Shown here: piece by piece, positions 4,912-59,903 of the stretch | Layout: each line of letters opens with the position of its first letter | How positions within the stretch are numbered: the first letter of the stretch is position 1 | Assembly (NCBI GenBank): GCA_041576165.1 | Contig: JBFGLM010000005.1 | Span: 74,581 to 138,580 of the forward strand | Source: Acidimicrobiia bacterium | Lineage (GTDB): Bacteria > Actinomycetota > Acidimicrobiia > Spongiisociales > Spongiisociaceae | Reading direction: 5' to 3' | DNA: 64,000 bases | Made by a program: the position numbers and the translations under genes | Notes under the pieces: model-generated | What the model was told of the DNA's origin: nothing | Database searches by the model: none | Seen by the model: the letters and a program-made list of their open reading frames with translations, nothing else

Positions 4912-6339
4912 ATGGAAACTGAAAACGTGGACCATCCGGTGACCGGCCGACCGGCGGACTCCGGTTTGACGGCTACTACCTCTACCGAGGTTGATTTGCG
5001 CGCGGGACGCCCCGTTGTCCGGTTCACCTCCGACGGATCCGACGCCGACGAACTGGCCTACTGGGCGACGCACGACCGGCTCACTCGCCTCGCCAACCGC
5101 GACCTGTTCCGGACCGAGCTCGTGCGCGCCATGGCCCTCAGCCAGCGCGCGAGAGACGCGCTGGCAGTTCTGTTCATAGACCTCGACCGATTCAAGCAGG
5201 TGAACGACGTGTTCGGGCATGAGGTGGGTGACCGGGTGCTGGTCCAGGTGGCCGAGCGGATCGTGCGGGTGTCGCGTCCGGCCGACACGGTGGGTCGGTT
5301 CGGCGGCGACGAGTTCGTGGTGCTGTGTAACGACATCCGCGAAGTCGGCCGGGCGTGGTCGATCGCCCAGCGAATCGCATCCGAAATAGACCGCCCGTTC
5401 CAGGTTGGAGAGCTGGAGCTGTCGATCGGGTGCAGCATCGGGATCGCCCTTGCCGAGGACACCCTCGCCCCCGACGAACTGATGCGACGAGCCGATCAAG
5501 CCATGTATCGAGCCAAGAGCGAGCGCACTGAGGTGGCGGCCTATTCCGGCGATCGGGCGCCTCGTCGGATCGGCTCGGAGACGTCCGAATGTCTGCTGAC
5601 GGCGGCTCTGGCCGGCGACGTTGAACTGCGCTACCAGCCCATCGTGGGTCTGCGCGACCGTCAGATGCTTGCCTTGCGAGCATCAATCGCTTGGAGCAAT
5701 GCGGCGGATTCTTCAGCTCCCGCCGGCGATCTCATGGCCACGGTTGCGGACAGTTCGACAGTTCGGGAGCTCGGCCGCTGGGCGCTCGAACGTTCCCTGT
5801 GCGACCTCGCAACTTTCACGCGGCTGGGCCTCAACCCCGATGTGGGTGTGATGGTCTCGCTCACCGCCCAGCAGGCGCTGGACGGCGGTCTGAGCGACGC
5901 GGCTCGCCAGGCCATCGAACGAGCGTCGATCGAGCCGGGCCGGCTCATTCTCGGGGTCGCCGAGTCCATCCTGTCCGACGTTCTGGATCCGTCGAACCGG
6001 CAGCGATTCGCCCCGGTCGGAAACCGATTCGCGATCGAATCGTTCGGTGTGTCCGGCTCATCGCTGCTGCAGCTCGGAGATCTCGGCGCCGCCTATTTGA
6101 CCATTGACCAACGATTTGTCTCCGGCCTGAGCCGAACGCCGCATCTGGCCAAGGTGATCGGTGCGATGACACAACTTGCTGGAGCTTTCGGAATGAAGGC
6201 CATAGCGGCGGGAGCCGAGTCGGAAGCAGACCTTGCGTCCTTGCGTCGGCTCGGCTGCGCGGCCGCGTACGGCCATTGTGTGAGCCCGGCCCTTCCGGCC
6301 GACCAAATCAACGGCCTGGTGGCCAGCGGAGCGGCTTGA
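4912..6339 (+). CDS. GGDEF + degenerate EAL domain protein
   Basis: HDRLTRLANR, FIDLDRFKQVND, RPADTVGRFGGDEF. EAL half has YQPIV but ALRAS in place of EAL and IESFG in place of DDFG. Confidence 0.88.
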   Translation: METENVDHPVTGRPADSGLTATTSTEVDLRAGRPVVRFTSDGSDADELAYWATHDRLTRLANRDLFRTELVRAMALSQRARDALAVLFIDLDRFKQVNDVFGHEVGDRVLVQVAERIVRVSRPADTVGRFGGDEFVVLCNDIREVGRAWSIAQRIASEIDRPFQVGELELSIGCSIGIALAEDTLAPDELMRRADQAMYRAKSERTEVAAYSGDRAPRRIGSETSECLLTAALAGDVELRYQPIVGLRDRQMLALRASIAWSNAADSSAPAGDLMATVADSSTVRELGRWALERSLCDLATFTRLGLNPDVGVMVSLTAQQALDGGLSDAARQAIERASIEPGRLILGVAESILSDVLDPSNRQRFAPVGNRFAIESFGVSGSSLLQLGDLGAAYLTIDQRFVSGLSRTPHLAKVIGAMTQLAGAFGMKAIAAGAESEADLASLRRLGCAAAYGHCVSPALPADQINGLVASGAA

Positions 6340-26538: not shown

Positions 26539-28146
26539 TCAGGCCCGCTCGCGCAGCTCTACCCGCCGGATCTTGCCGGAGATCGTTTTCGGCAACTCGT
26601 CGACGAACTCGATCTCCCGTGGGTATTTGTAAGGTGCCGTGATCGACTTCACGTGGTCCTGAATGTCGGCGCGCAGCGCGTCAGAACCAGTGTGGCCCGG
26701 CGCCAGGATCACATAGGCCTTGACGATATGGCCGCGCTCAGGGTCGGGTTTGCCGACCACCGCCGCCTCGGCCACCGCCGGGTGTTCGATGAGCGCCGAC
26801 TCGACCTCGAAGGGACCGATCCGGTACGCAGCGGACAGGATCACGTCATCGGCGCGGCCCACGAACCAGAAGTAGCCGTCCTCGTCCCGATACGCGCGGT
26901 CCCCGGTGTAGTACCAGCCGTGGCGGAACACCTCGGCGTTGCGTTCCTCGTCCTGCCAGTATCCGCGGAACAGCCCGACCGGCCACGGCTCGGTGCGAAC
27001 GGCGATGTGACCCTCCACTCCATCGGGGCAGATCGCGCCGTCGTCGTCCACGATATCGACGTCCATGCCTGGGGCCGGTCGCCCCATAGAGCCGGGCTTG
27101 ACCTCGAGTGCCGGATAGTTGGCAACCAAACACACCGATTCCGTCTGCCCGTAGCCGTCGTACGGGACAGTGCCGGTGGCGGCATGCCACGTTTCGATCA
27201 CTTCCGGGTTGAGCGGCTCACCGGCGCTGGTGCAGTGGCGCAGGGTCGACCAGTTGAAGGAGCTCAGATCCATCTGGGCGAATGCGCGATACAAAGTGGG
27301 AGGGGCACAGAACGAGGTGACCCCCAATTCGCCGATCAAGTGAAGCATCCGTTCGAAATCGGGTTTGCCCACGATGTCCCACATGACAACCGTCGCTCCC
27401 ATGATCCACTGGCCGAACAGCTTGCCCCACGCGGCCTTGGCCCAACCGGTGTCCGAGACCGTCCAATGGATGTCGTTGGGCCCCAGGTCGTGCCAGAAGC
27501 GGGCGGTGATCTCATGGCCCAGCGCGTAGGAGCCGGCATGCTGAACCATCTTCGGCCCGGCTGTTGTGCCCGATGTGAAGTACAGGAGCAGCGGGTCGCC
27601 GGCTCGGGTCGGCTCCACCGGCGCCGGGCCGGCGCCGACGCCGTCGAGTTCCGATCCGAGTGAGCGCCAGCCGGGCTGGTTGGCTCCCACCACGAACCGT
27701 GCCGTGAGTGATGGACAGTCGTCAGCTACCTGCGCCAGTCGGGCCGCGCCCGTCGCGTCGCACACGGCGGCGGTCGCGCCGGCCCGGTTGATGCGGTATT
27801 GCTGATCTTTGGGCATCAGCTGGGTGGTGCCGGGCATCGGCACGGCCCCTATCTGAAAGCAGCCCAGCAGAACGGCATACCACTCGACAATCCTGGGAAG
27901 CTGCACGAACACCCGATCCCCCGCACCAATGCCGCAGCCACGGAGCAGGTGGGCGGTGCGATGAGCCAGGTCGGATAGGTCGGCATATGTATACCGGTTG
28001 ATCGTCTCGCCGTCGGCTTCGACGCCGATCAACGCTACCTCATCGGGCCCTTCGGAGGCCCGGCGGTGCATGACGTCGCCGGTGAAGTTGTAGTACTCCG
28101 GCACCTCGACCCCAAACTCGGCCCGAGTTTCCTCATAGCTGGTCAT
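26539..28146 (-). CDS. Medium-chain acyl-CoA synthetase (ACSM-like)
   Basis: YFTSGTTAGPK, SDTGWAK, AGEPLN, YGQTE, TGDRA, GRADD, YKYPR, PKTISGKI. Confidence 0.92.
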   Translation of the reverse strand: MTSYEETRAEFGVEVPEYYNFTGDVMHRRASEGPDEVALIGVEADGETINRYTYADLSDLAHRTAHLLRGCGIGAGDRVFVQLPRIVEWYAVLLGCFQIGAVPMPGTTQLMPKDQQYRINRAGATAAVCDATGAARLAQVADDCPSLTARFVVGANQPGWRSLGSELDGVGAGPAPVEPTRAGDPLLLYFTSGTTAGPKMVQHAGSYALGHEITARFWHDLGPNDIHWTVSDTGWAKAAWGKLFGQWIMGATVVMWDIVGKPDFERMLHLIGELGVTSFCAPPTLYRAFAQMDLSSFNWSTLRHCTSAGEPLNPEVIETWHAATGTVPYDGYGQTESVCLVANYPALEVKPGSMGRPAPGMDVDIVDDDGAICPDGVEGHIAVRTEPWPVGLFRGYWQDEERNAEVFRHGWYYTGDRAYRDEDGYFWFVGRADDVILSAAYRIGPFEVESALIEHPAVAEAAVVGKPDPERGHIVKAYVILAPGHTGSDALRADIQDHVKSITAPYKYPREIEFVDELPKTISGKIRRVELRERA

Positions 28147-28327
28147 GTTCGGCAAAGTGGTCACCTCCCGGCACGCAGGGTACCGATCGTGCCCAGGGGC
28201 AGGCCGGCTGCGGCGCCCGGTTTGCGGCCGCGTTCCGATAATCGCCGCCGGGGACAAGGTCCGTCTTTGCTACTTTGACGGGACAGTCCCGGTCCAACGG
28301 GAGACCCGGCGCACAGGAGACTTGCGG

Positions 28328-30922
28328 GTGAAAGGCGGTGTGGAGACTCGTCTGGTCTACACCCTCAGCGTTGATCTGATCGAGTCAACGCTCGAGGGCA
28401 TCGCCATGACTCAGCGCGAACTGGACCGCTTCAATCGAGCGCTGGTGGCGCAGATCGAACCGCACCTCGACGCGCTGGGGTTCGAAGATCTACTCGCGAA
28501 GTTCACCGGAGACGGCTGGCTGCTCATGAGCCCGGAGCTGCACGACGCCGAACGCCTGTGCGCACTGGCTGCCATCATGAAGATCAGCTTTCATCGTGAC
28601 ATCGAGGAACGAACCGGACTGTCGCGGTCCCGGATCCCCGATTTGCGCATGGCGCTGTGCAGCGGCCGTGACATCCGCATTCACCTGTGGCAGGGCTCCT
28701 TTGACTGGGTGGGCGATAGTGCCCGGCGGGCCGCCCGCAGCGCTCAGTTTGCCTATCCGAACGAGGTGCTGATCGATGCTTCGGTCAATTCCCTCGTCAT
28801 GCGCGACTTCGTGACCACCCAGATCGATCCGGGCGTGCGGCCTACTGCGCCCAAACGACTCGAGGAAGACATTCCGCTGTGGGCGCTGGGCGAGCTGCGG
28901 ATCGAGGCGGCCGAGGACTGGGAAACCGCCGCGGCCTACGTGTACGCGCTCGGACAGGTGGGACGAACCGAAGACGCGGCCGCCGCCTCTTTACGCGCTG
29001 CGGACCGGCTGGAGTCCGAAGGCCTGCTCACCAACCCGGAGCCGGGTTCCACGATCGGGCGCTGGAACCGGCTGATCAGCACCGCTCCGACCTACGAGGC
29101 GGTACTCGACCTGTGGAGACGGCTGGAAGAGTGCGGCGCCCGTCCCAACCTCGTCACCCTCAACACGCTGATCGAACGTTCCCCGTCCCATGACGAAATC
29201 GAGCGATGGACGGACACGCTGACTGAACGCGGGATCCGCCTCGACGCAACGACCTATCGATTGATGATCGGACGGGCGCCGGACTTCGACGCCGCGCTGA
29301 AGGTCTTGTCCGAGATGGATTCGGCCGGGGTTGAGCCCGATGCGGAGATCCTCGAAGCGCTGGTTGTCCGGGCTCCGACCTACCGTGCCGCGGTCCGGCT
29401 CGTACGCATGATGCTCACCCGCGACGTGCGACCAACCGTCGAGATCTTCCGCCGGCTCGTCGCCAAGGCCCCCGGCTACGACGTGGCGATCGGGGTGCTG
29501 GACCTGATGGACCAGTGGCGGGTGGCGCCGGATGTTTCGATATTCAACCGACTCGTGCAGCGGGCTCCCTCCTACGACGATGCCGTGTCGTGGCTGGACA
29601 CGATGGCCGGCCGCAGTGTCATGCCCGACATCACCACCTTCAACACGCTCATTGCGCGGGCCGGGCGCTACGGCGCTGCGGTCGGCTGGCTGGACGACAT
29701 GGAGGCGCGGGGGGTGCGCCCGGATGTCTCGACCTTCAACGTCTTGGTCTCCCGCGCCCCCGACTACGAAGTGGCGGTGGCGCTGCTGCGGCGCATGCCC
29801 GAGCGCGGAGTCCGCCCCAACTCGGAAACGTACAAGACGCTGATCGGTCACGCTCCCCACTACGGGGCCGCAGTGGGCTGGCTCGACGAGATGCGCACGG
29901 AAGGCATCCGCCCCAACAATGAGGTCTTCAAAGCCCTCATCGAAAAGGCACCCGATTACGACAGCGCCGTCCGGTGGCTCAACGACATGGGGCAGGCGGG
30001 AGTGGCTCCCAACACCGAGACGTACCGCACGCTCATGTCCAAGGCTCCGGATCTCCTCGAAGCGCTGAACCTGCTGGACAACATGGCTGAGAACGGGGTG
30101 CAGGCCACGTCTGAGACGTTCAAGACCTTGGTTGGTTGCACGGGGTCAAGCGACGAGGCATTGGATGTGATCGCCAGGATGCCGGCGGCGGGTGTGAGAG
30201 CCACAGCCGAGATCTACCAGCCCCTCATAGCCGGGGCCGGATCGCTGCAAGAGGCGCGAGCCTGGCTGGATCACATGTATGCCAGCGGGGTGGAGCCCAC
30301 GACGGAAACGCTGACCGCCGTTTTGCGGAAATCCTCGACGTACGACGAGGCGGAGGTCCTGCTCGACACGATGCGAACGAGTATCGAGCCCAACGAGGGC
30401 GCATACCGGGTGCTGGTCGAGTTGTCGCCGGACATGCTGACTGCGCAGGGGTGGGTGGAGGAGATGAGGGAAGAGGGCATGCGGCCCAGCGCCGCGATTC
30501 TCGAAGCGCTTCTGGGCAAGGATCCAGGAGACATCTCGGCCCAGGCGCTGCTGGATTGGTATCTCAGTCTCGACTATCACCCTGCCGGTCCTATGGCTGC
30601 TGCGATCGACTCCTATGTCGAGCGTGGCTCGGTCCAGGATGCGCTGCGGCTCACGCTCGACTATCCGCACCTGGAGGCCGCCCGGCAGGTGTTCGCCGAT
30701 CACGGGGATGACGCGCTGGTGTACTTCAATGATGTGGTCAGCCGTGAACCGGGACACCCGAACGGTCGCTATGCCATGGGGCTGGCGCTGATCGAGGCGG
30801 GCAAGCCCCACGAAGCGCTGTCCCATCTCGAGGTCGCCATGGAACTCGCCCGGCCCGGGCCTCGGGTGGCGGCGCTCGACGAGATCATCCGCTCCATCCG
30901 CAGTCAGCTCGAAACACCGTGA
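28328..30922 (+). CDS. Class III nucleotidyl-cyclase-like domain + 15 PPR-like repeats + TPR
   Basis: AGGAGA RBS then GTG 28328 (alternative 28340). Cyclase motifs SVDLIEST, KFTGDG, LRMALCSG, DWVGDSARRAAR, PNEVLID; repeats such as VSTFNVLVSRAPDYEVAVALLRRMPERGVRPN; C-terminal TPR-like RYAMGLALIEAGKPHEALSHLEVA. Confidence 0.85.
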   Translation: MKGGVETRLVYTLSVDLIESTLEGIAMTQRELDRFNRALVAQIEPHLDALGFEDLLAKFTGDGWLLMSPELHDAERLCALAAIMKISFHRDIEERTGLSRSRIPDLRMALCSGRDIRIHLWQGSFDWVGDSARRAARSAQFAYPNEVLIDASVNSLVMRDFVTTQIDPGVRPTAPKRLEEDIPLWALGELRIEAAEDWETAAAYVYALGQVGRTEDAAAASLRAADRLESEGLLTNPEPGSTIGRWNRLISTAPTYEAVLDLWRRLEECGARPNLVTLNTLIERSPSHDEIERWTDTLTERGIRLDATTYRLMIGRAPDFDAALKVLSEMDSAGVEPDAEILEALVVRAPTYRAAVRLVRMMLTRDVRPTVEIFRRLVAKAPGYDVAIGVLDLMDQWRVAPDVSIFNRLVQRAPSYDDAVSWLDTMAGRSVMPDITTFNTLIARAGRYGAAVGWLDDMEARGVRPDVSTFNVLVSRAPDYEVAVALLRRMPERGVRPNSETYKTLIGHAPHYGAAVGWLDEMRTEGIRPNNEVFKALIEKAPDYDSAVRWLNDMGQAGVAPNTETYRTLMSKAPDLLEALNLLDNMAENGVQATSETFKTLVGCTGSSDEALDVIARMPAAGVRATAEIYQPLIAGAGSLQEARAWLDHMYASGVEPTTETLTAVLRKSSTYDEAEVLLDTMRTSIEPNEGAYRVLVELSPDMLTAQGWVEEMREEGMRPSAAILEALLGKDPGDISAQALLDWYLSLDYHPAGPMAAAIDSYVERGSVQDALRLTLDYPHLEAARQVFADHGDDALVYFNDVVSREPGHPNGRYAMGLALIEAGKPHEALSHLEVAMELARPGPRVAALDEIIRSIRSQLETP
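29054..30490 (+). repeat. Array of 15 PPR-like protein repeats (14 x 32 aa, 1 x 31 aa; 96-nt period)
   Basis: Hand alignment: each unit has xxT(F/Y)xxL(I/V)xxAPxYxxAxxxLxxMxxxGVxP(D/N/T), which matches the PPR consensus minus three residues at the helix A-B turn. Confidence 0.85.
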
Positions 30923-30993
30923 TGGCGGCACCCGGCCGGGACCGATCCCCCGACCTGGCAGAACCCTCGGCGGGCGCGGAGGGTGAGCACGGC

Positions 30994-31872
30994 ATGAGGG
31001 TGGGGGTCCAGGTGCCTGAGGTCGAACGCTTCGTCCCGTGGTCCGAGTACGCGCACATCGCACACGCAGCCGAGCGGGGCGGCCTGGATTCGCTGTGGGT
31101 GGGAGACCATTTGCTCTACGACTTGCCGGACGGCACGACTCGGGGGCCGTGGGAGTGCTGGACGCTGCTCGCCGGCCTGGCGGCGGTGACGCAACGGGTC
31201 ACGCTGGCCCCGCTGGTGGCCTCCACAAGCTTCCACGCACCCGCCATGCTGGCCAAGCTCGCTAGCACCGTCGACGCGATCTCCGGCGGGCGGCTCGTCT
31301 TGGGCCTCGGAGCGGGATGGAACGAGCGGGAGTACCAGGCGTACGGTTTCCCGTTTGACCGCCGGGTCAGTCGCTTCGAGGAGGCGTTCATGATCATCCA
31401 CACCCTCGTGCGGGAGGGTCGAATCGATTTCGAGGGGGAGTTCTACAGGTTGCAGAACATGGTCCTGGACCCTCCCGCTCGGGCGGACATGCCAATCCTC
31501 GTGGGGTCGACGGGTCCCCGCATGCTCGCCATCACCGCCCCGTTCATGGATATGTGGAACACGTGGTACGCCGACTTCAACAACGATCCTGCGCGGTTGG
31601 GGGAACGCCTCGCCCTGGTGGACGAAGCCGCCATCGCGGCCGGTCGAGACCCGGCCGAGATCGAACGCACCGCGGCATTGTTGTTGCAGCTGGGTGACGC
31701 CCCGACTCGCCGGAACAGTCAGAACCCCATCACGGATCTGGACCGGCTGCCGGCAGCGCTCGACGCCCTGGCGGAGGCGGGGATTTCACACGCCCAGCTG
31801 GTGCTCGACCCGATCACGGCCGAGACTGTTGCCACTGCCGCCCAACTCGTCGAGGCGTGGCGTTCCGGTTGA
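30994..31872 (+). CDS. LLM-class flavin/F420-dependent oxidoreductase
   Basis: DSLWVGDH, LAKLASTVDAISGGRLVLGLGAGW; alternative start GTG 30919 overlaps the PPR gene stop. Confidence 0.88.
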   Translation: MRVGVQVPEVERFVPWSEYAHIAHAAERGGLDSLWVGDHLLYDLPDGTTRGPWECWTLLAGLAAVTQRVTLAPLVASTSFHAPAMLAKLASTVDAISGGRLVLGLGAGWNEREYQAYGFPFDRRVSRFEEAFMIIHTLVREGRIDFEGEFYRLQNMVLDPPARADMPILVGSTGPRMLAITAPFMDMWNTWYADFNNDPARLGERLALVDEAAIAAGRDPAEIERTAALLLQLGDAPTRRNSQNPITDLDRLPAALDALAEAGISHAQLVLDPITAETVATAAQLVEAWRSG

Positions 31873-31928
31873 ACTCCCGGTCCGGCCCGCTGACGCCCGT
31901 GTCGTGCCCACCCGCTAGCGTCCTCGCC

Positions 31929-32825
31929 GTGGAGAAGAGCCGCACATTGCTGCCGCATCGCCCGCTGGACCTACGTCGCACGTTTCACGTGACTGGTCTG
32001 AAGGGCCCGAACCAGCGCGTGGCCGATGGGGGGCTGTGGCGGGCCAGCCGCACCCCGGAAGGTCCGGGCACGATCCGGCTTTCGATAACGGCGGCCGGCG
32101 AGCTGGAAGCCACTGCGTGGGGACGGGGCAGTGAATGGCTACTCGAGCGGCTGCCCGCCATCGTCGGCGAAACCGACGATCTGGCCGGGTTCCGGGCACG
32201 TGACGACGTTGTGCGCGGCCTTCTTCGGCAAGCCCGGGGGCTGCGGCTCCCGGCTGTCGGCGCCATGGTCGAGGTGCTGATCCCGATCATCCTCGCGCAG
32301 AAGGTCACCGGGGTTGCGGCCGGTCGCAGTTACCGCAGGCTGATGGCCCGCTTCGGTGAGTCGGCACCTGGGCCGGCCGGGCTGCGTCTCTCCCCGGACC
32401 CAGCGGTGCTCGGCGCCCTGCCCTACTACGACCTGCACCCCATGGGGATCGAAAAACGGAAGGCAGACGTGATCGGCCGGGTGTGCCGGGAGGCTGTCAG
32501 GCTGCAGGCTGCGGTGAACATGGATCGGACCACGGCGTACGCGGCGCTGCAGGCCATCCGTGGAATCGGCCCCTGGTCGTCCGCGCGCGCGATGATGGTC
32601 GTGGCGGGTGACCCGGACGCAGTGCCGGTCGGTGATTACCACATTCCCAACTCCGTCACATGGGCGCTGGCCAACGAACCGCGGGGGACCGACGAGCGGA
32701 TGCTCGAGTTGCTCGAACCATATGCCGGGCAACGAGGCAGGGTGGTCAGGATGATCGAGGCCTACGCCGGACAGGCGCCGGCATACGGTCCGAAGCTGGC
32801 GCCCCGGGCGTTCGGGACGCAGTAG
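31929..32825 (+). CDS. HhH-GPD DNA glycosylase (AlkA / 3-methyladenine glycosylase II family)
   Basis: ILAQKV, HhH IRGIGPWS, GDPDAVPVGDYH, LLEPYAGQR. Confidence 0.85.
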   Translation: MEKSRTLLPHRPLDLRRTFHVTGLKGPNQRVADGGLWRASRTPEGPGTIRLSITAAGELEATAWGRGSEWLLERLPAIVGETDDLAGFRARDDVVRGLLRQARGLRLPAVGAMVEVLIPIILAQKVTGVAAGRSYRRLMARFGESAPGPAGLRLSPDPAVLGALPYYDLHPMGIEKRKADVIGRVCREAVRLQAAVNMDRTTAYAALQAIRGIGPWSSARAMMVVAGDPDAVPVGDYHIPNSVTWALANEPRGTDERMLELLEPYAGQRGRVVRMIEAYAGQAPAYGPKLAPRAFGTQ

Positions 32826-32848: not shown

Positions 32849-33844
32849 TCAGCCGGCGTCTGCAGCAGCCTTGCGCAGTTCCGGTAAAACCTCGACTTCC
32901 ATCATGTTCATCAGCTCGTCGACCCGGGTGGTGGCTACCTGGATCGAGATGTAGTCGGCGCCGATCTCGTTCACCAACGGCAGGTAGGCGTCGATGAGGC
33001 CCGCCACGTCCCCGACGATGGTGTAGCGGTCCAGTATGTCGGAGCGTTCCATCTCATCGGCCCGCTGGCGCAGCACCATCGGGTCGACCGCTTCCAGCCG
33101 GCCCGGCGCCCGTAGTCCCCGCATCGAGCCGAGGGCCCGCCAGGCATCATCGGCGTCGGCCGCGAACACCGTCCAGCGGGTGGCCAGAATCCGGCCCGCG
33201 TTGCCGTGCTTCTCGGATGACTCCCGAAAAGGTCCAATCACCCGCTCGATGGTCTCCGACGGGTTTTTCACCGACGTGATCAGACCGTCCGCCCGCCGGC
33301 CGGCGAAAGTTGCCGACTGGGGACCCCCGGCTGCCATCAGGATCGGCAGCTTCTCGGTCAGCGGAGGACTGTACAGCTGGGCCTTGTCGGTGGTGTACCA
33401 GTCACCTGCGAAATCGAGCTTCTCTCCGGCGAGGAGGCGATGCATGATCTCGAGGGCCTCGCGCATCCTGCCGATGCGTTCCTTGTAGTCGCCGAACTCG
33501 AATCCGAGCGGGCCCTCGTTGATGTTCTCGCCGGTACCCACTCCCAGGATGAAACGCCCGCCGCTGAGCCGGTCGACCGTGGCGGCCGCCTGGGCGATGA
33601 GCGCAGGGTGATAGTGATACAGCGGGCACGTGACCGACGTCGCAAGTTCCAGGTCGGTCCGCGCGGCGACGGAACCCAGCCAGCTCCACACGAAGCCTGA
33701 TGCCGACTCATCATCGACCCAGGGGTGGAAATGATCCGAACCCAGCACCAGGTCGAACCCTGCCTCCTCAGCCCGAACCGCCTGGTCGACCAGGACCTCC
33801 GGTTGGAAGGATTCATGCGAACAGAGCCAGCCGAACTTCACCAT
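32849..33844 (-). CDS. F420-dependent LLM oxidoreductase (Fgd-like family)
   Basis: SHESFQP, SDHFHPW, TSVTCP..YHPALIAQAAAT, GVGTGENINE. Confidence 0.85.
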   Translation of the reverse strand: MVKFGWLCSHESFQPEVLVDQAVRAEEAGFDLVLGSDHFHPWVDDESASGFVWSWLGSVAARTDLELATSVTCPLYHYHPALIAQAAATVDRLSGGRFILGVGTGENINEGPLGFEFGDYKERIGRMREALEIMHRLLAGEKLDFAGDWYTTDKAQLYSPPLTEKLPILMAAGGPQSATFAGRRADGLITSVKNPSETIERVIGPFRESSEKHGNAGRILATRWTVFAADADDAWRALGSMRGLRAPGRLEAVDPMVLRQRADEMERSDILDRYTIVGDVAGLIDAYLPLVNEIGADYISIQVATTRVDELMNMMEVEVLPELRKAAADAG

Positions 33845-33925: not shown

Positions 33926-34927
33926 TCAGCCCCCTGCCAGTTCCCAAACGTGATGGGCGATGGCGTCAGCGGTGGGCCGGCCATTCTCGGCCATGTCGAC
34001 AATCGAGAAATGTCCGACCCCATCGAGCTCACGGTATTTCACGGAGTAGCCGCCGGAGTCGAGTGCGGCCGCGAACTGGACTGAGAACTCCGGGTCCACA
34101 ACCGGGTCGCGCCCCCCGTGCAGCATCAGCACGGACACGTCGGGATTCCGTCCCAGGTACGTGTACGGATTGCCCGTTGCCCACGCCTCCGGGATCTCGG
34201 TACGCAACCCTCCGAATTGGAGCGCAAGGAACGGGAATTGGTCTGAATCGTACGGTCCCGAGATGCCCACGAAGCCGGCGACTGGAGAGGGCTCCTCGAT
34301 GCATTCAGCACTGAATTCCTCAGGGGCGAGCGCTACCACCGCCCCGATGTGGGCGCCGGCCGAGAATCCAACAAGGGTCGTGGGCGGACCGCCCCCGTAG
34401 TCGGCGGAACGGGTCTCGGCGAAAGCGAGGGCACAGGCCACCTCTTGGAACATCTGCGGAAAGGCGCCATCCCGCTCCAGGGGCCGGTACTCGACGTTGA
34501 ATACCACCACCCCGTGACGGGCCAGCGTACGGGCCAGACCGGCCAGATCCTCCTTACGGCCCGAAACCCAGCCGCCCCCGTGGATCGTGATCGCCACCGG
34601 CCAGGGCCCCGGATCCGCCGGGAAGAACACGTCCGCCGGCAGACCCCCGGGGACCGCCACATCGTGGTCCTCCCGGATCGCGAGGTCGTCGGGAGTGTGA
34701 CGCGGAATGGGTGCGGTCGTGGGCGGGGCGGGAGCCCGGGTGATCGAGGTGGTCGCGTTGCCGGCGGGCGCGAAGGTGGCGACCGTCGAACTCGCCGTGC
34801 TCGCAGGCGGAAACCTGTCGACCGCCGGGCTCTCGCCTGCTGCTGCGTCCCCATCTGCGGCCGGCGCAGTTTCGCAGGCTGCCAGCAGCGTCACCAGAAT
34901 CACGAGACCCGTCAGCGCGCGTTTCAT
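33926..34927 (-). CDS. Lipoprotein esterase/lipase (alpha/beta hydrolase)
   Basis: Lipobox LAAC; HGGGW, GFSAG, HGGRDPVV, GVGH. Confidence 0.85.
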   Translation of the reverse strand: MKRALTGLVILVTLLAACETAPAADGDAAAGESPAVDRFPPASTASSTVATFAPAGNATTSITRAPAPPTTAPIPRHTPDDLAIREDHDVAVPGGLPADVFFPADPGPWPVAITIHGGGWVSGRKEDLAGLARTLARHGVVVFNVEYRPLERDGAFPQMFQEVACALAFAETRSADYGGGPPTTLVGFSAGAHIGAVVALAPEEFSAECIEEPSPVAGFVGISGPYDSDQFPFLALQFGGLRTEIPEAWATGNPYTYLGRNPDVSVLMLHGGRDPVVDPEFSVQFAAALDSGGYSVKYRELDGVGHFSIVDMAENGRPTADAIAHHVWELAGG

Positions 34928-35781
34928 GCGCCCGACAACCGCTCCAGCAGGAGGTGCGTGGCCCAGTTGGCGCCCTCCCCCCATTCGGCCACGACGACCC
35001 GCACCTGATCTTCGTCGAGGAGGTCATCTTGCTCCGCGACATACCGGCTGATGGCCTTGCGGACGCCGAGATCGCCGGCCGCAATCACATGACCGCGACC
35101 CAGACACCGGGCCAGGAGCCAGTCGGCGCTCCAGCGACCGATACCTCGAATCGCGGTGACGTGGTCCATCACGGCTGCATCGCTCATGTTTTCCAACCCG
35201 GCGAGGTGGCCGTCCGCCGCCGCCTGGGCGAGGCCGACGATGTACTCGGCCTTGCGCATGGTGAACTGCATGTCTCGCAGCGCGGCCGGGTCGACCGGTG
35301 CCAGCATCTCGGGGGACGGGAACCGCCAGACCGTCTGCCCGTCGATGTGATGCGCCGAACCGAATCGTCCGACGAGGCGCCGTCGAGTGGTAGTCGCCCA
35401 CGTCAGATTCACCTGTTGAGCCGTGATCGCGGTGACCAGCGCTTCGAAGGGGTCGGCGACCAGCGGAGGTCGGTAACCGGCGAGGCGCCGTGACTGCTCG
35501 GCCACCGGCGGCACGGCCAGTGCAGCCGGAGTGGGCCGGGGAAGCGCTTCGGCTAGGCGGTGCGACAGATCGGCATTGGCCCGGCCCGGGTCTCCCAATA
35601 CGTGCAGCTCGACCGCGTACGCGTCGAGCTGGCGTGCCCGGTAGACGGTGCCATCGGGTGTGACCCGGTGGTAGCACCCGTCTGTCACCGTGTTGACCGG
35701 ATCGTCCCCCCACCGGGTGTATCGGGCGATACACGCTCGGAGATCGAGCGGCCGGTCGGTTATCCAGGTGGTGCGCTCCAT
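34924..35781 (-). CDS. alkA: DNA-3-methyladenine glycosylase II (AlkA family)
   Basis: DPFEALVTAITAQQV, FPSPE, RKAEYI, IRGIGRWSA, AGDLGVRKA. Confidence 0.85.
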   Translation of the reverse strand: MERTTWITDRPLDLRACIARYTRWGDDPVNTVTDGCYHRVTPDGTVYRARQLDAYAVELHVLGDPGRANADLSHRLAEALPRPTPAALAVPPVAEQSRRLAGYRPPLVADPFEALVTAITAQQVNLTWATTTRRRLVGRFGSAHHIDGQTVWRFPSPEMLAPVDPAALRDMQFTMRKAEYIVGLAQAAADGHLAGLENMSDAAVMDHVTAIRGIGRWSADWLLARCLGRGHVIAAGDLGVRKAISRYVAEQDDLLDEDQVRVVVAEWGEGANWATHLLLERLSGA

Positions 35782-35886
35782 GGCCGCGGAGAGTGTATGC
35801 GGCCCGTGGACGTAGCCGGATCGCCCCCGGTGCCGGGCCGTGGGCCGTTTCAAGATTTCGGCCTAACCCGTCGATAACCACTGGGA

Positions 35887-37572: not shown

Positions 37573-40104
37573 ATGACCGCAGAGGCGATTGCGTCTGAGC
37601 CGAAACGGCGGAGGTTGTCCGGGGTCGGACGCGTTTGGGTTCTCACTGCGGTAGCCGCCCTAGCGGCGGTCGGCCTGTCTGCACTGATCTGGCGGATGCA
37701 TTCGTTCGCACCTCCGATCCGGATCCCCATGGTCGTCTTCGGGGTGCTGTTCTACGTCGCCGAGATCACCGTGGTGCACGTCCGGTTCCGACGAGACGCG
37801 CACTCGTTTTCAATGAGCGAGGTTCCGCTGGTTCTGTCACTCTTCTTCCTCGCTCCGGGCCAGATCATCACGGCCCAGTTTCTCGGAACCACTCTGGCAT
37901 TGGCCGTCAACCGCCGTCAGAGATCGGTCAAGCTGGCGTTCAATGCGTCCCAACTGACGCTGCAGGCTGCCGTCTTCATCGGCATCTTCATGGCTATCAC
38001 CACCGGTGCGGACCCGCTCGGCCCGATGGGTTGGCTGGGGGTGGCGGCAGGGATCGGGGCCACTGTTGTCGTGTCGAACACCATGATCGGTGCGGCGATC
38101 CGTATGTCGGGTGGGACGCTGTCGACGGACGATCGCAACACGATGTACCTCCTCAGCCTCGGCGCGGCGGTCCTCAACGCGGCATTGGCACTGATCGCCG
38201 CCACGATCCTGTGGGCCCGTCCGAGCAGCGCCTGGATTGCGCTCATCCCATTCGCCGTATTGTTCTTCGCGTACCGGGCCTATCTGGCGCAACGGCTCGA
38301 TCGCGACCGGCTGCACGCGCTGTACGAAATCAGCGGTGAGCTTCACCGCCTCCCCCGCATTGACGACGCCCTGGCCGCGGCCGCCGATCGGGCGCGGTCC
38401 ATGTTCGATGCCGAGAGCGCCGCAGTCTTGCTCTACCCGGAGGGTGAGCAGGGTCCGGGTTTGCGCACCGAAGCCCTGGTCGACGCCCCCACCACGGCGA
38501 TGCAGCCGGTCGAGGACATGGATGCGGATGTTGCCGAGTTCGTCCAGCGAGGTGGTGGTCCATGGCTGGCAACCGACGAAAACGATCGAGGGATCGCAAT
38601 GATCGTCCCGGTACCGGGATCCGATTCAGGGTTCGGGGCGATGGCGGTGCGCAGCCCGTTGAGCGACATCGGCAGTTTCGGCCCTCGTGATCTTGCGCTG
38701 CTGGAAACTCTGGCCGACCACGTTGGGGTCTCGCTCAAAAACGGTCGCCTGCAGGACTCGCTGGCCCGCCTCACCGAGCTCAAAGATGAGCTACACCAAC
38801 GGGCATTGCACGACAGCTTGACCGGCCTCGCCAACCGTACGTTGTTGTTTCAGGAATTGGAGCGAGTGCTGGGAGCGAGCAGCAATCGGGGCGCCGTGAT
38901 GTTCATCGATCTCGATGATTTCAAGGCCATCAACGATACCCACGGACACGAAACCGGGGATCTCGTCCTGATCGAGGTGGCCGCCCGCCTCCGATCCTCC
39001 TGCCGCCCCCACGACCTCGTCGCCCGGCTCGGCGGGGACGAATTCGCGCTGCTGCTGGAAAACCTCACTTCCCATGACGACGCCATCCGGGTGGCCGAGC
39101 GCATCATCCGGTTGGTGGGCGAGCCGATCGTCACCCAGGGGGGCGCAGTCGAGACGCAGGTCAGCGTCGGGGTGGCGATGACCGATGGCACCGGCGAACC
39201 GGACGAGGTGCTGCGCCGTGCCGACGAAGCCATGTATGCCGCCAAGTTCGACGGTAAAGGCTGCTACCGGCTCCACAGTCCCGGCATGAGCAGCAAACAC
39301 GCGGCGGAACTGGCCACCGTGACCAGCCTGCGCCACGCGATCGACTCGGACGAGCTCGAGCTGTACTACCAGCCGCTGGTCGACTTGAAGACGCGGCAGG
39401 TCCACGGCGTGGAGGCCCTCGTGCGCTGGAACCATCCGACCGAAGGACTGTTGCTACCGGCCGCCTTCGTGCCGGTGGCCGAACGTCGCGGGCTGACCGC
39501 CGCCATGGGTGAGTGGGTGCTGAAGGCGGCCATTGGCCAGATCGCAAGCTGGCAGGCCGAGCACGATACCGTGCCGCTCGTTTCGATCAATCTCTCGGCC
39601 GCCGAGATCTCCGAAGGATTGATACCGATGGTCGATGCTCTGACCCGGGCGAAGGGGGTTGAGCCGTCCAACCTCCAGATCGAGATCACCGAAGGTGTCA
39701 TGATGTCGAGTGACAGTGCGTTCCTGGAGCGGCTCCGCGCCCTCGGCGTCCAGGTCGCTCTCGACGATTTCGGAACCGGGTATTCCTCGCTGGCGTACCT
39801 CGACAGGTTGCCGGTCGACACCATCAAGTTCGATCAATCGTTCATCGCCCGCCTCGACGACGAACGAACGGCCCGGATCCTTCAGCTGATGACCGACTTC
39901 GGTGTGGCCATGGGCTACCGCACCGTGGCCGAGGGGATCGAAACGACCGAACAGCTGGCGGCGCTCACCAAGTTCGGCTGTCAAATGGGCCAGGGCTACC
40001 TGTTGGGCCGGCCGATGCCGGTGGCGGAAGTGGAGCGGCTGATCTTCGGACCGGAGGAACGGCTGGCCGACGTCGTCGTGCTGCGCCCGGCCTCCAACGG
40101 CTGA
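37573..40104 (+). CDS. Membrane sensor-GAF-GGDEF-EAL c-di-GMP enzyme
   Basis: About 7-8 N-terminal TMs, GAF-like segment, RPHDLVARLGGDEF, VEALVRW, IEITE, DDFGTGYSSL, AEGIET, QGY; starts 9 nt after the subtilase stop. Confidence 0.92.
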   Translation: MTAEAIASEPKRRRLSGVGRVWVLTAVAALAAVGLSALIWRMHSFAPPIRIPMVVFGVLFYVAEITVVHVRFRRDAHSFSMSEVPLVLSLFFLAPGQIITAQFLGTTLALAVNRRQRSVKLAFNASQLTLQAAVFIGIFMAITTGADPLGPMGWLGVAAGIGATVVVSNTMIGAAIRMSGGTLSTDDRNTMYLLSLGAAVLNAALALIAATILWARPSSAWIALIPFAVLFFAYRAYLAQRLDRDRLHALYEISGELHRLPRIDDALAAAADRARSMFDAESAAVLLYPEGEQGPGLRTEALVDAPTTAMQPVEDMDADVAEFVQRGGGPWLATDENDRGIAMIVPVPGSDSGFGAMAVRSPLSDIGSFGPRDLALLETLADHVGVSLKNGRLQDSLARLTELKDELHQRALHDSLTGLANRTLLFQELERVLGASSNRGAVMFIDLDDFKAINDTHGHETGDLVLIEVAARLRSSCRPHDLVARLGGDEFALLLENLTSHDDAIRVAERIIRLVGEPIVTQGGAVETQVSVGVAMTDGTGEPDEVLRRADEAMYAAKFDGKGCYRLHSPGMSSKHAAELATVTSLRHAIDSDELELYYQPLVDLKTRQVHGVEALVRWNHPTEGLLLPAAFVPVAERRGLTAAMGEWVLKAAIGQIASWQAEHDTVPLVSINLSAAEISEGLIPMVDALTRAKGVEPSNLQIEITEGVMMSSDSAFLERLRALGVQVALDDFGTGYSSLAYLDRLPVDTIKFDQSFIARLDDERTARILQLMTDFGVAMGYRTVAEGIETTEQLAALTKFGCQMGQGYLLGRPMPVAEVERLIFGPEERLADVVVLRPASNG

Positions 40105-58337: not shown

Positions 58338-59903
58338 TCACCAGCGGCCGTCCGACCCTGATTTGGCGGCAGGCGTCAACCGGATCAGGAATTTCTCCCG
58401 GATGAGCTCGTCGGTTGCGGGGTCGATGTGTTGCGGATGATGCGAGGACAGAACCTCGCGCACCCGCAGATGCGCCCGGTCGGCGGCGGAAGTGGCGCCG
58501 GCCTCGGTCCAGTCGTCGGGGCTCAGGCGATCCCCGACGGCCGGATAGAGGTACTCCTTTTGCATCAGTCCCAGCGTTTGGGCGTGACCGAGGAAATGGC
58601 CGGGCCCGCTGATCACGTCTCGGATCACGGCGGCGGCCAGCGACTCGTCGGTCACATCGATGCCGCGCACTGTTCGGTTGACCGCTCCCAGCAGGTCGTT
58701 GTCGATGACCAGCATCTCCAGCGAGCAGGCGAGCAGTGACGCCAGCATCCCGGCCGATTCGTACACCAGATTGGCGCCGGCGTGCGCGGCCAACGCGACG
58801 GTGAGGCCCTTCTCGTGGCCGGCCTGGGCGTCCGGGATCTTCGAGTCGGCCATCCCGGCCGGTACCCCGGAGGGAAGGCCCAGCCAGTTGGCCACCTGGG
58901 CCGCACCGGCCGCCAGGACCGCCTCTTCTCCGCTGCCCCCGCTCATGGCACCGGTACGCAGGTCTGAGACGAAGGGCCAGAGTCCCATCACACAGGGGTG
59001 GCCGGGAGACAGCAGATTCACGCTCGTCAACGCGGCCAAGCATTCCGCCAGGGCTTGCGCCAGCGAGCCGGCCAGTGAGGCGGGAGAGGTGGCGCCCGCC
59101 TGGCCCGCCGACAACAGGTTGATAGGCATGCCGGTCTGGACCTGAGCCACCATGCATTTGGCCGAATCGACCGCGAACCGGAGCGGTGGAACCACGAACG
59201 TGTTGTTGGCCACGACGAACGGGCGGCGGGCGAACTCTCCCGGCGCCCCCAGCACCATGTCGAACATCTCCACGGACTCATAGACATGCTCGGGGCTGAA
59301 ATACGAAGTCCCGACTGGTTTGGTGGTTCCGGCCATAGTGGCGTAGGCCGTGTTGATGTCCAGCTCTCTCGACGTCTCGCAGTCGCGGGTCACGACGGGG
59401 CGGGCGAAAAAGTGGATATGTTCTAGTGTGTCGGCCAGCCGGGACAGGTCGTAGAGATCGGCCGTTGTCGAATCCCGGAACTTCTGGGTCCGGTGGTCCA
59501 GCATCAGTACTGCGGCTCCGGCCGTGCCAAAGTGCACTCTCTGTTCGGATAGCTCGATGCTCCGATCCTCGTCGATCCCGTGCCAGACCCACGATTTGGC
59601 CGCCGTTTGTATGGCGCCTTCGACGACTCCCCGGGGATAGCGCAGCCGGTCGCGTTCGTCGACGCGGCCCCCGGCCGCCGTCACGACCTCGATGAACTCA
59701 GGAATCGGGTCGCCCATCCCGACGTTCTCCAGCAGATCGAACGCGGTGTCAGCGATCCGAACGAGGTCGGCCTCTGTCAGCGGCCGGTAGGCGCCGCCCA
59801 TCTGACCCGGCCAGACTGCCCGTTCGTCTTGGCTCGGCCCGGCAGCCCGGGCCGCGATCCGGGCCGACCGGCCGCCGCTGCGCCGCCGGGCGGTCTGGGC
59901 CAT
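58338..59903 (-). CDS. MttB-superfamily methyltransferase without pyrrolysine (MtgB-like)
   Basis: FGTAGAAV, PPLRFA, AGATSPASLAG, SDLRTGAMSGGSGE, DSKIPDAQAGHEK, GPGHFLG; no in-frame amber codon. Confidence 0.9.
   Translation of the reverse strand: MAQTARRRSGGRSARIAARAAGPSQDERAVWPGQMGGAYRPLTEADLVRIADTAFDLLENVGMGDPIPEFIEVVTAAGGRVDERDRLRYPRGVVEGAIQTAAKSWVWHGIDEDRSIELSEQRVHFGTAGAAVLMLDHRTQKFRDSTTADLYDLSRLADTLEHIHFFARPVVTRDCETSRELDINTAYATMAGTTKPVGTSYFSPEHVYESVEMFDMVLGAPGEFARRPFVVANNTFVVPPLRFAVDSAKCMVAQVQTGMPINLLSAGQAGATSPASLAGSLAQALAECLAALTSVNLLSPGHPCVMGLWPFVSDLRTGAMSGGSGEEAVLAAGAAQVANWLGLPSGVPAGMADSKIPDAQAGHEKGLTVALAAHAGANLVYESAGMLASLLACSLEMLVIDNDLLGAVNRTVRGIDVTDESLAAAVIRDVISGPGHFLGHAQTLGLMQKEYLYPAVGDRLSPDDWTEAGATSAADRAHLRVREVLSSHHPQHIDPATDELIREKFLIRLTPAAKSGSDGRW

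Follow-up and report, generated by a model that had tools for sequence, protein, structure and literature searches.

Class III nucleotidyl cyclases carry a characteristic set of catalytic residues, namely two metal-binding Asp residues, a residue pair that specifies the substrate, and an Asn and an Arg that act in the transition state. In the Pycsar systems, a cyclase gene lies beside a gene for an effector with a domain that binds cyclic nucleoside monophosphates (cNMPs). Proteins built of pentatricopeptide repeats (PPRs) are textbook organelle factors of eukaryotes. Here we analyze a gene that brings a cyclase-like and a PPR-like module together in one polypeptide. It occupies positions 28328 to 30922 (+) of a 64,000-nucleotide stretch of the genome of an Acidimicrobiia bacterium (GenBank assembly GCA_041576165.1, contig JBFGLM010000005.1), hereinafter the window, and encodes an N-terminal domain homologous to class III cyclases (the N-domain) followed by a long PPR-like solenoid; the family to which it belongs is stand-alone, single-copy and patchily distributed. 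Tentatively, and at somewhat less than an even chance, we read the product as a class III-type cyclase under the control of its solenoid, for which RNA is the likeliest ligand.

Several described systems resemble this protein in part. The AtPPR-AC protein of Arabidopsis, for which the evidence is reportedly a short search motif within a PPR protein and not a class III cyclase domain, similarly unites PPR repeats with claimed synthesis of cyclic AMP (cAMP) in one polypeptide; it bears no sign of kinship with the present N-domain. Adenylate cyclase activity of this protein (At1g62590) is stated in the available part of the report (PMC6243130). The Guanylate_cyc+TPR_19 and Guanylate_cyc+TPR-S clusters of the ESM Atlas and the actinobacterial proteins that combine a cyclase, an ATPase and tetratricopeptide repeats (TPRs) share with the present protein the order of N-terminal cyclase, alpha-solenoid and TPR_19-like end. 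Unlike the cyclase-ATPase-TPR proteins, the window protein has no NTPase between the two halves (none of its 18 Pfam matches belongs to an NTPase family of the NACHT, NB-ARC or nSTAND kind), a PPR-like rather than TPR solenoid, and a much more divergent cyclase. The two Atlas clusters are the nearest to homologue P0014, which stood in for the window protein in this comparison (the N-domains of the two are 69% identical), and their score of 0.84 is to be taken as a lead only. PaAvs5-3 and other STAND proteins also use PPR-type repeats as a C-terminal sensor module of a bacterial signaling or immunity protein; they carry a STAND NTPase together with Sir2-type or other effectors, whereas here there is no NTPase and the effector domain is cyclase-like. 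With PycC of Pycsar the present protein shares a class III-type cyclase encoded by a patchily distributed prokaryotic gene, but it differs in having no match to the PADLOC defense models, no adjacent effector, no conserved neighbor and no defense island, and in its purine-type Lys/Asp pair.

In the available part of its text, a survey of cNMP-cyclase conflict systems does not mention PPRs (PMC7159879), and a 2013 paper, likewise in the part available, still called the PPR motif exclusively eukaryotic (PMC4029402). Searches of the full-text literature, with subscription journals and supplementary files outside their reach, yielded no paper on a fusion of a cyclase with PPRs or on prokaryotic PPRs of 32 residues. 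The original prediction, made from the sequence of the window, that no protein of this architecture had been described holds for the searchable literature; the family is nevertheless common in sequence databases, where JGI gives the name 'class 3 adenylate cyclase', alone or together with 'TPR repeat protein', to 7 of the 120 homologues listed. Against this background, the protein is best classed as a class III-type cyclase with a putative solenoid sensor that is unusual in two respects, the short-PPR sensor and the fixed Asn-to-Arg change in the active site.

The gene and the parts of its product are listed below, with conservation counted over 187 sequences, that is, 186 homologues with near-full coverage of the domain plus the window protein:

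28328..30922 (+): whole gene, 864 codons plus stop, GTG start, from the list of open reading frames (ORFs) and the translation
28349..28912 (+): divergent class III cyclase-homology domain, residues ~8-195, from hhalign and PDB profile matches
28373..28375 (+): codon of D16, predicted first metal Asp; SVD16...ST in register with FxDIxGFT; Asp in 184/187
28499..28513 (+): codons of K58-F-T-G-D62, substrate Lys and predicted second metal Asp, aligned to KxxGD; K58 in 180/187, D62 in 187/187
28703..28738 (+): codons of D126...R133...R137, with D126-W-V-G-D-S-A-R133-R-A-A-R137 aligned to yDvwGDxVNxAxR
28913..29053 (+): linker, residues 196-242, acidic (net -6), no Pfam match, mean orthologue identity 0.68
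29054..30583 (+): PPR-like alpha-solenoid, residues 243-752, Pfam PPR_2 at 9.2e-49, period 32
30707..30877 (+): TPR-like unit, residues 794-850, Pfam TPR_19 at E 2.9e-4

The N-domain is about 190 residues long and is the best-conserved part of the protein, with a mean identity of 0.83, compared to 0.67 in the repeats, among 23 orthologues from the window's clade (a set from which P0003, 98% identical, was left out). Single-sequence searches with this domain returned no Pfam family beyond a chance-level match to HTH_46 at E 0.06, and no solved structure beyond a DUF433 chain at E 1.1. However, a profile made of 29 short family members (A1) retrieved 19 distinct PDB sequences at E<=10, all of them catalytic domains of class III cyclases, with the best E-value at 0.002 and some alignments covering profile positions 12-168; among these, we take Ma1120, Rv1264 and LipJ to be class III cyclase domains, and the other matches were recognized by molecule name. 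In hhalign comparisons, the N-domain profile matched a profile of 11 Pfam-confirmed cyclase domains from the same genome (A3) at 96.1% probability (E 3.2e-9, 131 columns), and a profile of nine GGDEF domains from that genome, used as a control, at 0.4%; the genuine cyclase profile matched the GGDEF profile at 76.9%, a weak match as expected for related folds. Given these matches, the N-domain belongs to the class III cyclase-homology superfamily, as a divergent member, and is not a generic palm domain. The alternative of a GGDEF-like palm domain was rejected on the hhalign value of 0.4%. The prediction of a class III cyclase at the N-terminus is thereby sustained at the level of profile-profile comparison, with the Pfam Guanylate_cyc model remaining silent. 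By profile, class III cyclases of solved structure (the mycobacterial Cya/Rv1625c-type 4p2f, 5o5k and 1yk9, and the rhodopsin-guanylyl cyclase 6aoa) have the same domain with the catalytic residues in register; in contrast to them, the window protein is PF00211-negative and comes with a PPR-like array attached, and its family has an invariant Arg for the Asn and near-invariant residues of its own.

The motif positions, both metal Asp residues and the Lys/Asp pair that had been predicted are in register with those of class III cyclases and near-invariant. In addition to the residues listed above, D126, at the position of the substrate Asp, is Asp in 173/187 sequences and Glu in 8 more, R107 aligns with the Arg of the RxGxxxG strand (179/187), and R137, at the position of the transition-state Arg, is kept in 181/187. 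The predicted replacement of the transition-state Asn by Arg, with the transition-state Arg retained, was confirmed as well: R133 is Arg in 186/187. The Asn-to-Arg change is a fixed character of the family and not decay. The Asn is also missing from 5 of the 11 Pfam-positive cyclase domains of the organism's own genome (V, D, H, H and S at this position). Furthermore, three residues that are near-invariant are specific to the family, namely W64, D115 and S131 (185/187 each). The conservation of D16, K58, D62, R107, D126 and R137, as seen in the alignment, argues for a working active site.

The PPR-like nature of the solenoid is evident from profile scores far above the Pfam cut-offs: 163.8 bits for PPR_2 (cut-off 30), 93 for PPR_3 (25), 49.1 for PPR_long (27), 48.4 for PPR_1 (23.8) and 43.1 for PPR (25), with E-values of 9.2e-49 for PPR_2, 1.2e-26 for PPR_3 and 1e-27 for NCBIfam TIGR00756 (94.5 bits, cut-off 20). 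Against PDB, the repeat region matched 32 sequences at E<=1e-3, nearly all of them named PPR proteins, and the phmmer matches are led by dPPR10 (4.6e-63) and include PPR10 (6.9e-40), mitoribosomal rPPRs and LRPPRC. The repeat length, however, departs from the 35 residues that define the PPR unit. The BLOSUM autocorrelation over residues 231-790 is 1.21 at lag 32 and 1.07 at lag 64, and <= -0.63 at the others, such that the period is exactly 32; the array is composed of 13 clean 32-mers (residues 243-658), one 31-mer and one or two degenerate units up to residue ~752, a total of 15-16. HMMER alignments to designer PPRs place a 3-residue gap at the end of helix a in each aligned repeat. Accordingly, the predicted count of about 15 PPR-like repeats stands, with the correction that the period is 32 and not 35. 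The 32-residue period recurs in 143 of the 171 family members with a tail of >=200 aa, and 23 members lack a period. The TPR predicted at the C-terminus was found at residues 794-850 as a TPR_19 match of 21.5 bits, below the cut-off of 25, so that we speak of a TPR-like unit; the corresponding family (PF14559) is present in many homologues, and the C-terminal part has a mean orthologue identity of 0.74.

A search with the repeat region retrieved 34 further proteins, of which two have the N-domain and period 32, and 30 lack the N-domain and have period 35, many of the latter being plant or algal by source name. Two proteins from this range deserve mention as observations in their own right. P0254 (665 aa, from a metagenome-assembled genome (MAG) of Rhodoblastus sp.) contains period-32 PPR-like repeats without the N-domain, along with weak matches to Pentapeptide_3 and bpX3; the short PPR is not strictly tied to the cyclase domain. 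In P0267 (778 aa, metagenome), a STAND-type NTPase (AAA_16, nSTAND3) is joined to TPR_12 and then to PPR-like repeats, an architecture from which it follows that PPR-type repeats also serve as sensor arms of prokaryotic STAND proteins.

With respect to the ligand of the solenoid, the most informative comparison is with PPR-RNA complexes. According to the available part of a study of designer-PPR/RNA structures, the base is recognized by residues 5 and 35 of each repeat (ND=U, NS=C, SN=A, TD=G) and sandwiched by Val2; the phosphate is held by Lys13, located where helix a ends, and K13A abolishes binding (PMC4837458). Across the family, in 415 full-length repeats from 133 proteins collected with a model built on the window's own repeats and biased to that extent, position 5 is N in 52%, S in 18%, R in 8%, K in 8% and T in 6%, and the last position is N in 56%, D in 35% and T in 9%; the commonest pairs of these positions are ND (107), NN (94) and SN (58). 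Moreover, position 2 is Val in 71% of these repeats, and position 10, which aligns with Lys13 of the 35-residue PPRs, is K or R in 74%. In the window protein itself, position 10 is K or R in 10/15 repeats, and over 13 repeats helix a (positions 1-12) carries a net charge of +9, compared to -21 for positions 13-32. Among the 23 orthologues, the code positions are conserved repeat by repeat (0.74 for position 5 and 0.73 for the last position, compared to 0.44-0.55 for outward-facing or surface positions), as would be expected if a single conserved ligand were read along the inner face of the solenoid. The repeats are clearly homologous to eukaryotic P-class and designer PPRs (PPR10, dPPR10; 4m59, 6een, 5i9f) and, like them, consist of helices a and b; the vocabulary of the code positions is kept family-wide, and Val2 and the Lys13 equivalent prevail across the family, with Val2 in 1/15 repeats of the window copy; the Atlas model of P0014 superimposes on plant PPR models with template modeling (TM) scores of 0.51-0.56. 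They differ from P-class PPRs in the family period of 32 rather than 35, in being prokaryotic and cyclase-fused and, for the window copy, in the Glu at position 2 and K/R at position 5 of many repeats.

In most of the family, the N-domain is accompanied by PPRs. A phmmer search with residues 1-197 yielded 154 representatives at 50% identity with E<=1e-3, 127 of them at E<=1e-10, and a length-limited search yielded 121 proteins with the N-domain, 120 of which are listed. Among these 120, 118 contain PPR families of Pfam, one (P0118) has FGE-sulfatase instead and one has nothing. Among the more distant or atypical members, PPR_2 was detected in 25/37, and other modules take the place of the PPRs in some: FG-GAP repeats in P0206, LRR plus FG-GAP in P0217, TPR_12 in P0247 and weak matches to NUDIX in P0190 and P0207. 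This combination of a constant N-terminal enzyme with interchangeable ligand-binding repeats follows the pattern expected of a sensor-regulated output domain. Because distant members keep the N-domain and swap the PPRs for FG-GAP/LRR, TPR_12 or FGE-sulfatase, the solenoid is the likely sensor.

The phyletic range of the family is wide and its distribution patchy. A scan for the motif patterns in one genome for each of 185,579 species, which requires exact patterns and hence gives a lower bound, found at least 60 loci, none of them outside MAGs and single-cell assemblies. By record name, these comprise 21 from Armatimonadota, seven from Chloroflexota, five from Planctomycetota, five from archaea (Methanotrichaceae, two Methanophagales, Argoarchaeum and Micrarchaeota), four from Acidimicrobiia and others; the archaeal carriers include methane- or ethane-oxidizing lineages of the anaerobic methanotrophic (ANME) type. 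In a tree of the N-domain with 56 rows (the partial sequences L039, L066, L068 and L070 and L065, which has a stop, were left out; the root is placed arbitrarily, and the branches of three rows are long), the window falls in a clade of 8 Acidimicrobiia-type rows (support 100/100), which includes three records beyond the four named for Acidimicrobiia, and 17 Armatimonadota rows make up a clade of their own (100/99). The archaeal pair Argoarchaeum/Methanophagales clusters with one Dehalococcoidia and one Acetothermia row (95/97), a Neomarinimicrobiota row pairs with an Acidobacteriota row on short branches (100/100), and a Verrucomicrobiaceae row joins a Planctomycetota row (100/99). The groupings at loci L033/L034 and L046/L060 suggest that the gene has been transferred across domains and across phyla. 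Within the window's class, 300 other sampled genomes yielded no copy, and among 20 closer relatives one (G309) has an orthologue, with 67% nucleotide identity. It is single-copy in 6/6 genomes, namely the window's own and all five other carriers checked. When a 13-kb query was compared to the 20 relatives, scattered single-gene matches alone were obtained, with no syntenic empty site and no insertion boundary.

The original prediction included a hint at an anti-phage, Pycsar-like function and raised the possibility that the neighbors of homologues are defense genes; neither is borne out by the genomic context. The protein has no PADLOC match at E<=1. When the ORFs of 61 loci were compared all against all, the clusters present in more than four loci all proved to be the gene itself or an ORF overlapping it, and the best cluster of true neighbors is present in 4/61 loci. 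Among 99 nearest neighbors (the nearest ORF on each side, from 182 ORFs within two positions, delimited by a longest-first rule and not by a gene finder), no Pfam family occurs more than twice, most genes are of the housekeeping type (MutS, YbeY, RtcB, ribonucleotide reductase, tRNA synthetase, NAD synthase) and at most 2/99 match PADLOC. Furthermore, searches of 50,697 phage records, 72,556 plasmids and the contigs of IMG/VR (0/39 candidate stretches) did not turn up the N-domain. There is no adjacent effector of the Pycsar type, as PF00027 (cNMP_binding) has no match on the window's contig.

As for the potential recipients of a cNMP signal, the window's own assembly (96.5% complete, 7.5% contamination, 161 contigs, such that genome-wide counts may include foreign contigs) has 12 matches to the canonical cyclase family PF00211, many in open frames of 900-1980 aa, none of which corresponds to the cyclase-PPR gene, and five matches to cNMP_binding. 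As none of these five is on the window's contig, the prediction that no cNMP-binding effector lies nearby is upheld. The cAMP made by the protein, if any, could feed the existing network of its genome. The window's contig also encodes an 843-aa GAF-GGDEF-EAL protein (37573-40104, +) and a second GGDEF domain (~5065-5526, +); these GGDEF proteins and the 12 cyclase matches indicate an organism rich in nucleotide signaling. Among the five other carriers, PF00027 is present in 3/5 and PF00211 in 2/5.

Put together, these observations are compatible with the following mechanism. The protein would be a cytosolic signaling enzyme consisting of a single polypeptide, in which the N-terminal 195 residues are the cyclase, predicted to work, like all class III cyclases, solely as a head-to-tail dimer that forms the active site across its interface. 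From the Lys/Asp pair, ATP is the predicted substrate and cAMP the predicted product, and from the invariant Arg that stands in for the ribose-positioning Asn, a change in catalysis is predicted. The solenoid, with its 15-16 PPR-like repeats of 32 residues and the TPR-like end, would be the sensor; its inner face would bind one specific conserved ligand, most likely single-stranded RNA, and binding would switch the cyclase on or off, via control of dimerization or relief of autoinhibition. A more explicit version of this mechanism, in which the 32-residue array recognizes one single-stranded RNA, one base after another, and in doing so brings about the assembly or release of a remodeled cyclase dimer, giving a cyclic-nucleotide or other nucleotide-derived signal, strikes us as doubtful, well short of an even chance. 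The same degree of doubt attaches to its corollary, namely that a lineage of PPRs with 32-residue units is at home in bacteria and archaea and bears on the origin of the eukaryotic organellar PPRs.

Several findings weigh against a solenoid-gated cyclase with RNA as its ligand. On the side of the enzyme, PF00211 does not match the protein (E<=1 for the whole protein, E<=10 for N-terminal pieces), the PDB profile matches of the N-domain are individually weak, and the transition-state Asn has given way to R133, without which Asn the activity and the product may differ from those of a normal cyclase. On the side of the solenoid, the window copy is acidic (net -23, isoelectric point (pI) 4.78), in a family in which the C-terminal parts span a pI of 4.7-9.3 (5th-95th percentile, median 5.7, n=151). 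Its position 2 is Glu in 8/15 repeats and Val in 1/15, position 5 is K or R in 7/15, which is outside the known PPR code, and of its code pairs 5/15 are ND or NN and 1/15 is TN, with 9/15 outside the known code. Read with the plant PPR code, the window repeats give Y-U-?-?-?-U-U-Y-?-?-?-?-?-A-?, which is too degenerate for a target search. The prevalence of D, N and T at the last position could also reflect plain helix N-capping. In the available part of the work on PaAvs5-3, which has predicted PPRs in the Avs5 sensor arm, the authors expect protein ligands for such STAND sensor arms (PMC12931631). On the side of the signal, neither PF00027 nor PF00211 has a match in carrier G301 (4.56 Mb) or in carrier G304 (2.0 Mb, an archaeal MAG); carriers without PF00027 are real evidence against a simple cAMP-CRP reading and leave room for an unusual product or an RNA-directed activity. 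On this mixed evidence, RNA appears to be the likeliest ligand of the solenoid.

The same facts bear on the explanations that compete with an RNA-gated cyclase. It is unlikely, but by no means negligible, that the enzyme is the same and that the solenoid senses a protein, a peptide or a small molecule, in the manner of STAND/Avs or cyclase-TPR arms. Fusions of the N-domain to FG-GAP/LRR, TPR_12 and FGE-sulfatase, none of which is an RNA binder, point in this direction, as do the combination of TPR_12 and PPR-like repeats on the STAND NTPase P0267, the pI of the window solenoid, the Glu at the base-sandwiching position and the TPR-like end after the array. These points are countered by the prevalence, across the family, of Val2, the Lys13 equivalent and the vocabulary of the code positions, and by the net positive charge of helix a in the window repeats. 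To our knowledge, moreover, all PPR tracts with a determined ligand bind single-stranded nucleic acid. The view of the N-domain as a pseudo-cyclase, which would bind a nucleotide or dimerize only, so that the protein would be a scaffold for RNA or protein, seems to us improbable. That both metal Asp residues, the Lys/Asp pair and the transition-state Arg persist in 173-187 of the 187 sequences, from bacteria and archaea alike, is hard to explain without catalysis, and the invariance of the replacing Arg itself speaks for function rather than decay. A pseudo-cyclase would, in turn, account for the loss of the transition-state Asn and the failure of the Pfam model to recognize the domain; the Asn is lost, too, from 5/11 Pfam-positive cyclase domains of the same genome, and inactive cNMP-cyclase domains are reported in bacterial multidomain proteins in the available part of the survey of conflict systems (PMC7159879).

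An anti-phage sensor of the Pycsar kind, in which phage RNA or protein would elicit a cNMP that acts on a toxic effector encoded elsewhere, would fit the patchy distribution (0/300 genomes of the class, 1/20 relatives), the strongly supported pairings across phyla and domains in the tree, and the pattern of a constant enzyme with variable repeat sensors that the available part of the same survey describes for cNMP-cyclase conflict systems (PMC7159879). We nevertheless give it little credence, considering that the protein and almost all of its neighbors are silent in PADLOC, that the best neighbor cluster is confined to 4/61 loci amid mostly housekeeping genes, that the contig has no cNMP_binding gene, that the gene is single-copy in 6/6 genomes, that the code positions are conserved and not diversifying among orthologues, and that the gene is absent from the phage, plasmid and IMG/VR collections searched. 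Finally, the PPR array could deliver the cyclase-like palm to RNA, on which it would act directly, for example by nucleotidyl transfer. Eukaryotic PPR arrays are typically joined to RNA-acting catalytic domains (PPR-DYW, PPR-SMR, PRORP), R133 (186/187), D115, W64 and S131 (185 each) suggest a remodeled active site, and 2/5 other carriers lack a cNMP_binding domain; RNA-processing genes among the neighbors (YbeY twice, Ribo_biogen_C twice, RtcB and RNB) are too few to weigh. Yet the Lys/Asp pair and both metal Asp residues are exactly as in adenylate cyclases, the N-domain is fused to modules that do not bind RNA in distant members, and we know of no enzyme of the class III cyclase fold that acts on RNA ends, all of which makes an RNA-directed enzyme very improbable in our estimation. 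Among these alternatives, a class III-type cyclase gated by its solenoid, with RNA foremost among the candidate ligands, is the reading that we tentatively retain.

The immediate surroundings of the cyclase-PPR gene contain the following features:

26539..28146 (-): AMP-binding (acyl-CoA synthetase-type) gene, divergent, Pfam AMP-binding at 3.6e-68
28315..28319 (+): AGGAG, Shine-Dalgarno-like by our reading of the sequence, 8 nt before the GTG at 28328
30919..31872 (+): luciferase-like monooxygenase gene, downstream, Pfam Bac_luciferase at 5.4e-45, GTG start

In the ORF list, the open frame of the cyclase-PPR gene extends over 28145..30922 (+), and the product is 864 aa long. The original choice of the GTG at 28328 as the likely start is supported by the AGGAG 8 nt upstream and by homologue P0003 (98% identical), which is also 864 aa in length. 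The intergenic gap to the AMP-binding gene is 181 nt if the ATG at 28146, the presumed start, is used. On the other side, the GTG of the monooxygenase gene overlaps the stop of the cyclase-PPR gene by 4 nt, and co-transcription of the two is possible; the monooxygenase is not kept beside homologues, and the window has no neighbor cluster in common with the 60 related loci. The wider surroundings include hydrolases, a second monooxygenase/HhH-GPD pair, a subtilase and the GAF-GGDEF-EAL protein, and none of the annotated neighbors resembles a defense or mobile-DNA gene. The two luciferase-like monooxygenase genes (30919-31872, +, and 32849-33844, -) and the two HhH-GPD genes (31857-32825, +, and 34924-35853, -) are laid out roughly in mirror image, with a BD-FAE/alpha-beta hydrolase gene (33926-34984, -) between the second monooxygenase gene and the second HhH-GPD gene.

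In base composition the gene is like its neighbors: the GC content at third codon positions (GC3) is 0.81 in the gene, compared to 0.76-0.84 in eight neighboring genes, in agreement with the original observation of similar GC-richness. Recent import from a eukaryote, which had been considered not obvious, is rejected on the basis of this GC3, the period of 32 rather than 35 and the position of the gene in the 100/100 clade of 8 Acidimicrobiia-type rows. Of the Pfam matches of the protein, none is to a family linked to membrane insertion or secretion, with no dedicated signal-peptide test made, and the protein is probably cytosolic. The window contains no tRNA genes, and no riboswitch or other Rfam family was found near the gene, the single Rfam match in the window being far from it. 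That match, to PYLIS_3 (the pyrrolysine insertion sequence of mttB), lies at 58754-58853 (-), with 55.6 bits compared to a gathering score of 38, inside an ORF at 58338-59936 (-) that encodes a 532-aa protein of the MttB family (Pfam MTTB at 5.1e-109) without an in-frame stop; it probably reflects conservation of the coding sequence in a non-pyrrolysine MttB homologue. Among the 11 sequencing runs (five studies) that hold the gene or part of it, none is listed as an RNA dataset, which has no bearing on expression.

In its wide phyletic range, its 32-residue repeat, the retention of RNA-contact residues in most of its repeats and its fusion to a signaling rather than an RNA-processing enzyme, the family departs from the textbook image of PPR proteins. 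Should the array bind a protein, the class of sensors that combine a cyclase with a solenoid would be extended, and even then the invariant Asn-to-Arg change would represent an unstudied catalytic variant of class III cyclases. If, however, the array reads RNA and gates the cyclase, the protein would be a direct transducer from RNA to a second messenger and a modular RNA sensor of natural origin that might be reprogrammed and whose output is easy to measure, and the family would offer a testable handle on the origin of the PPR.

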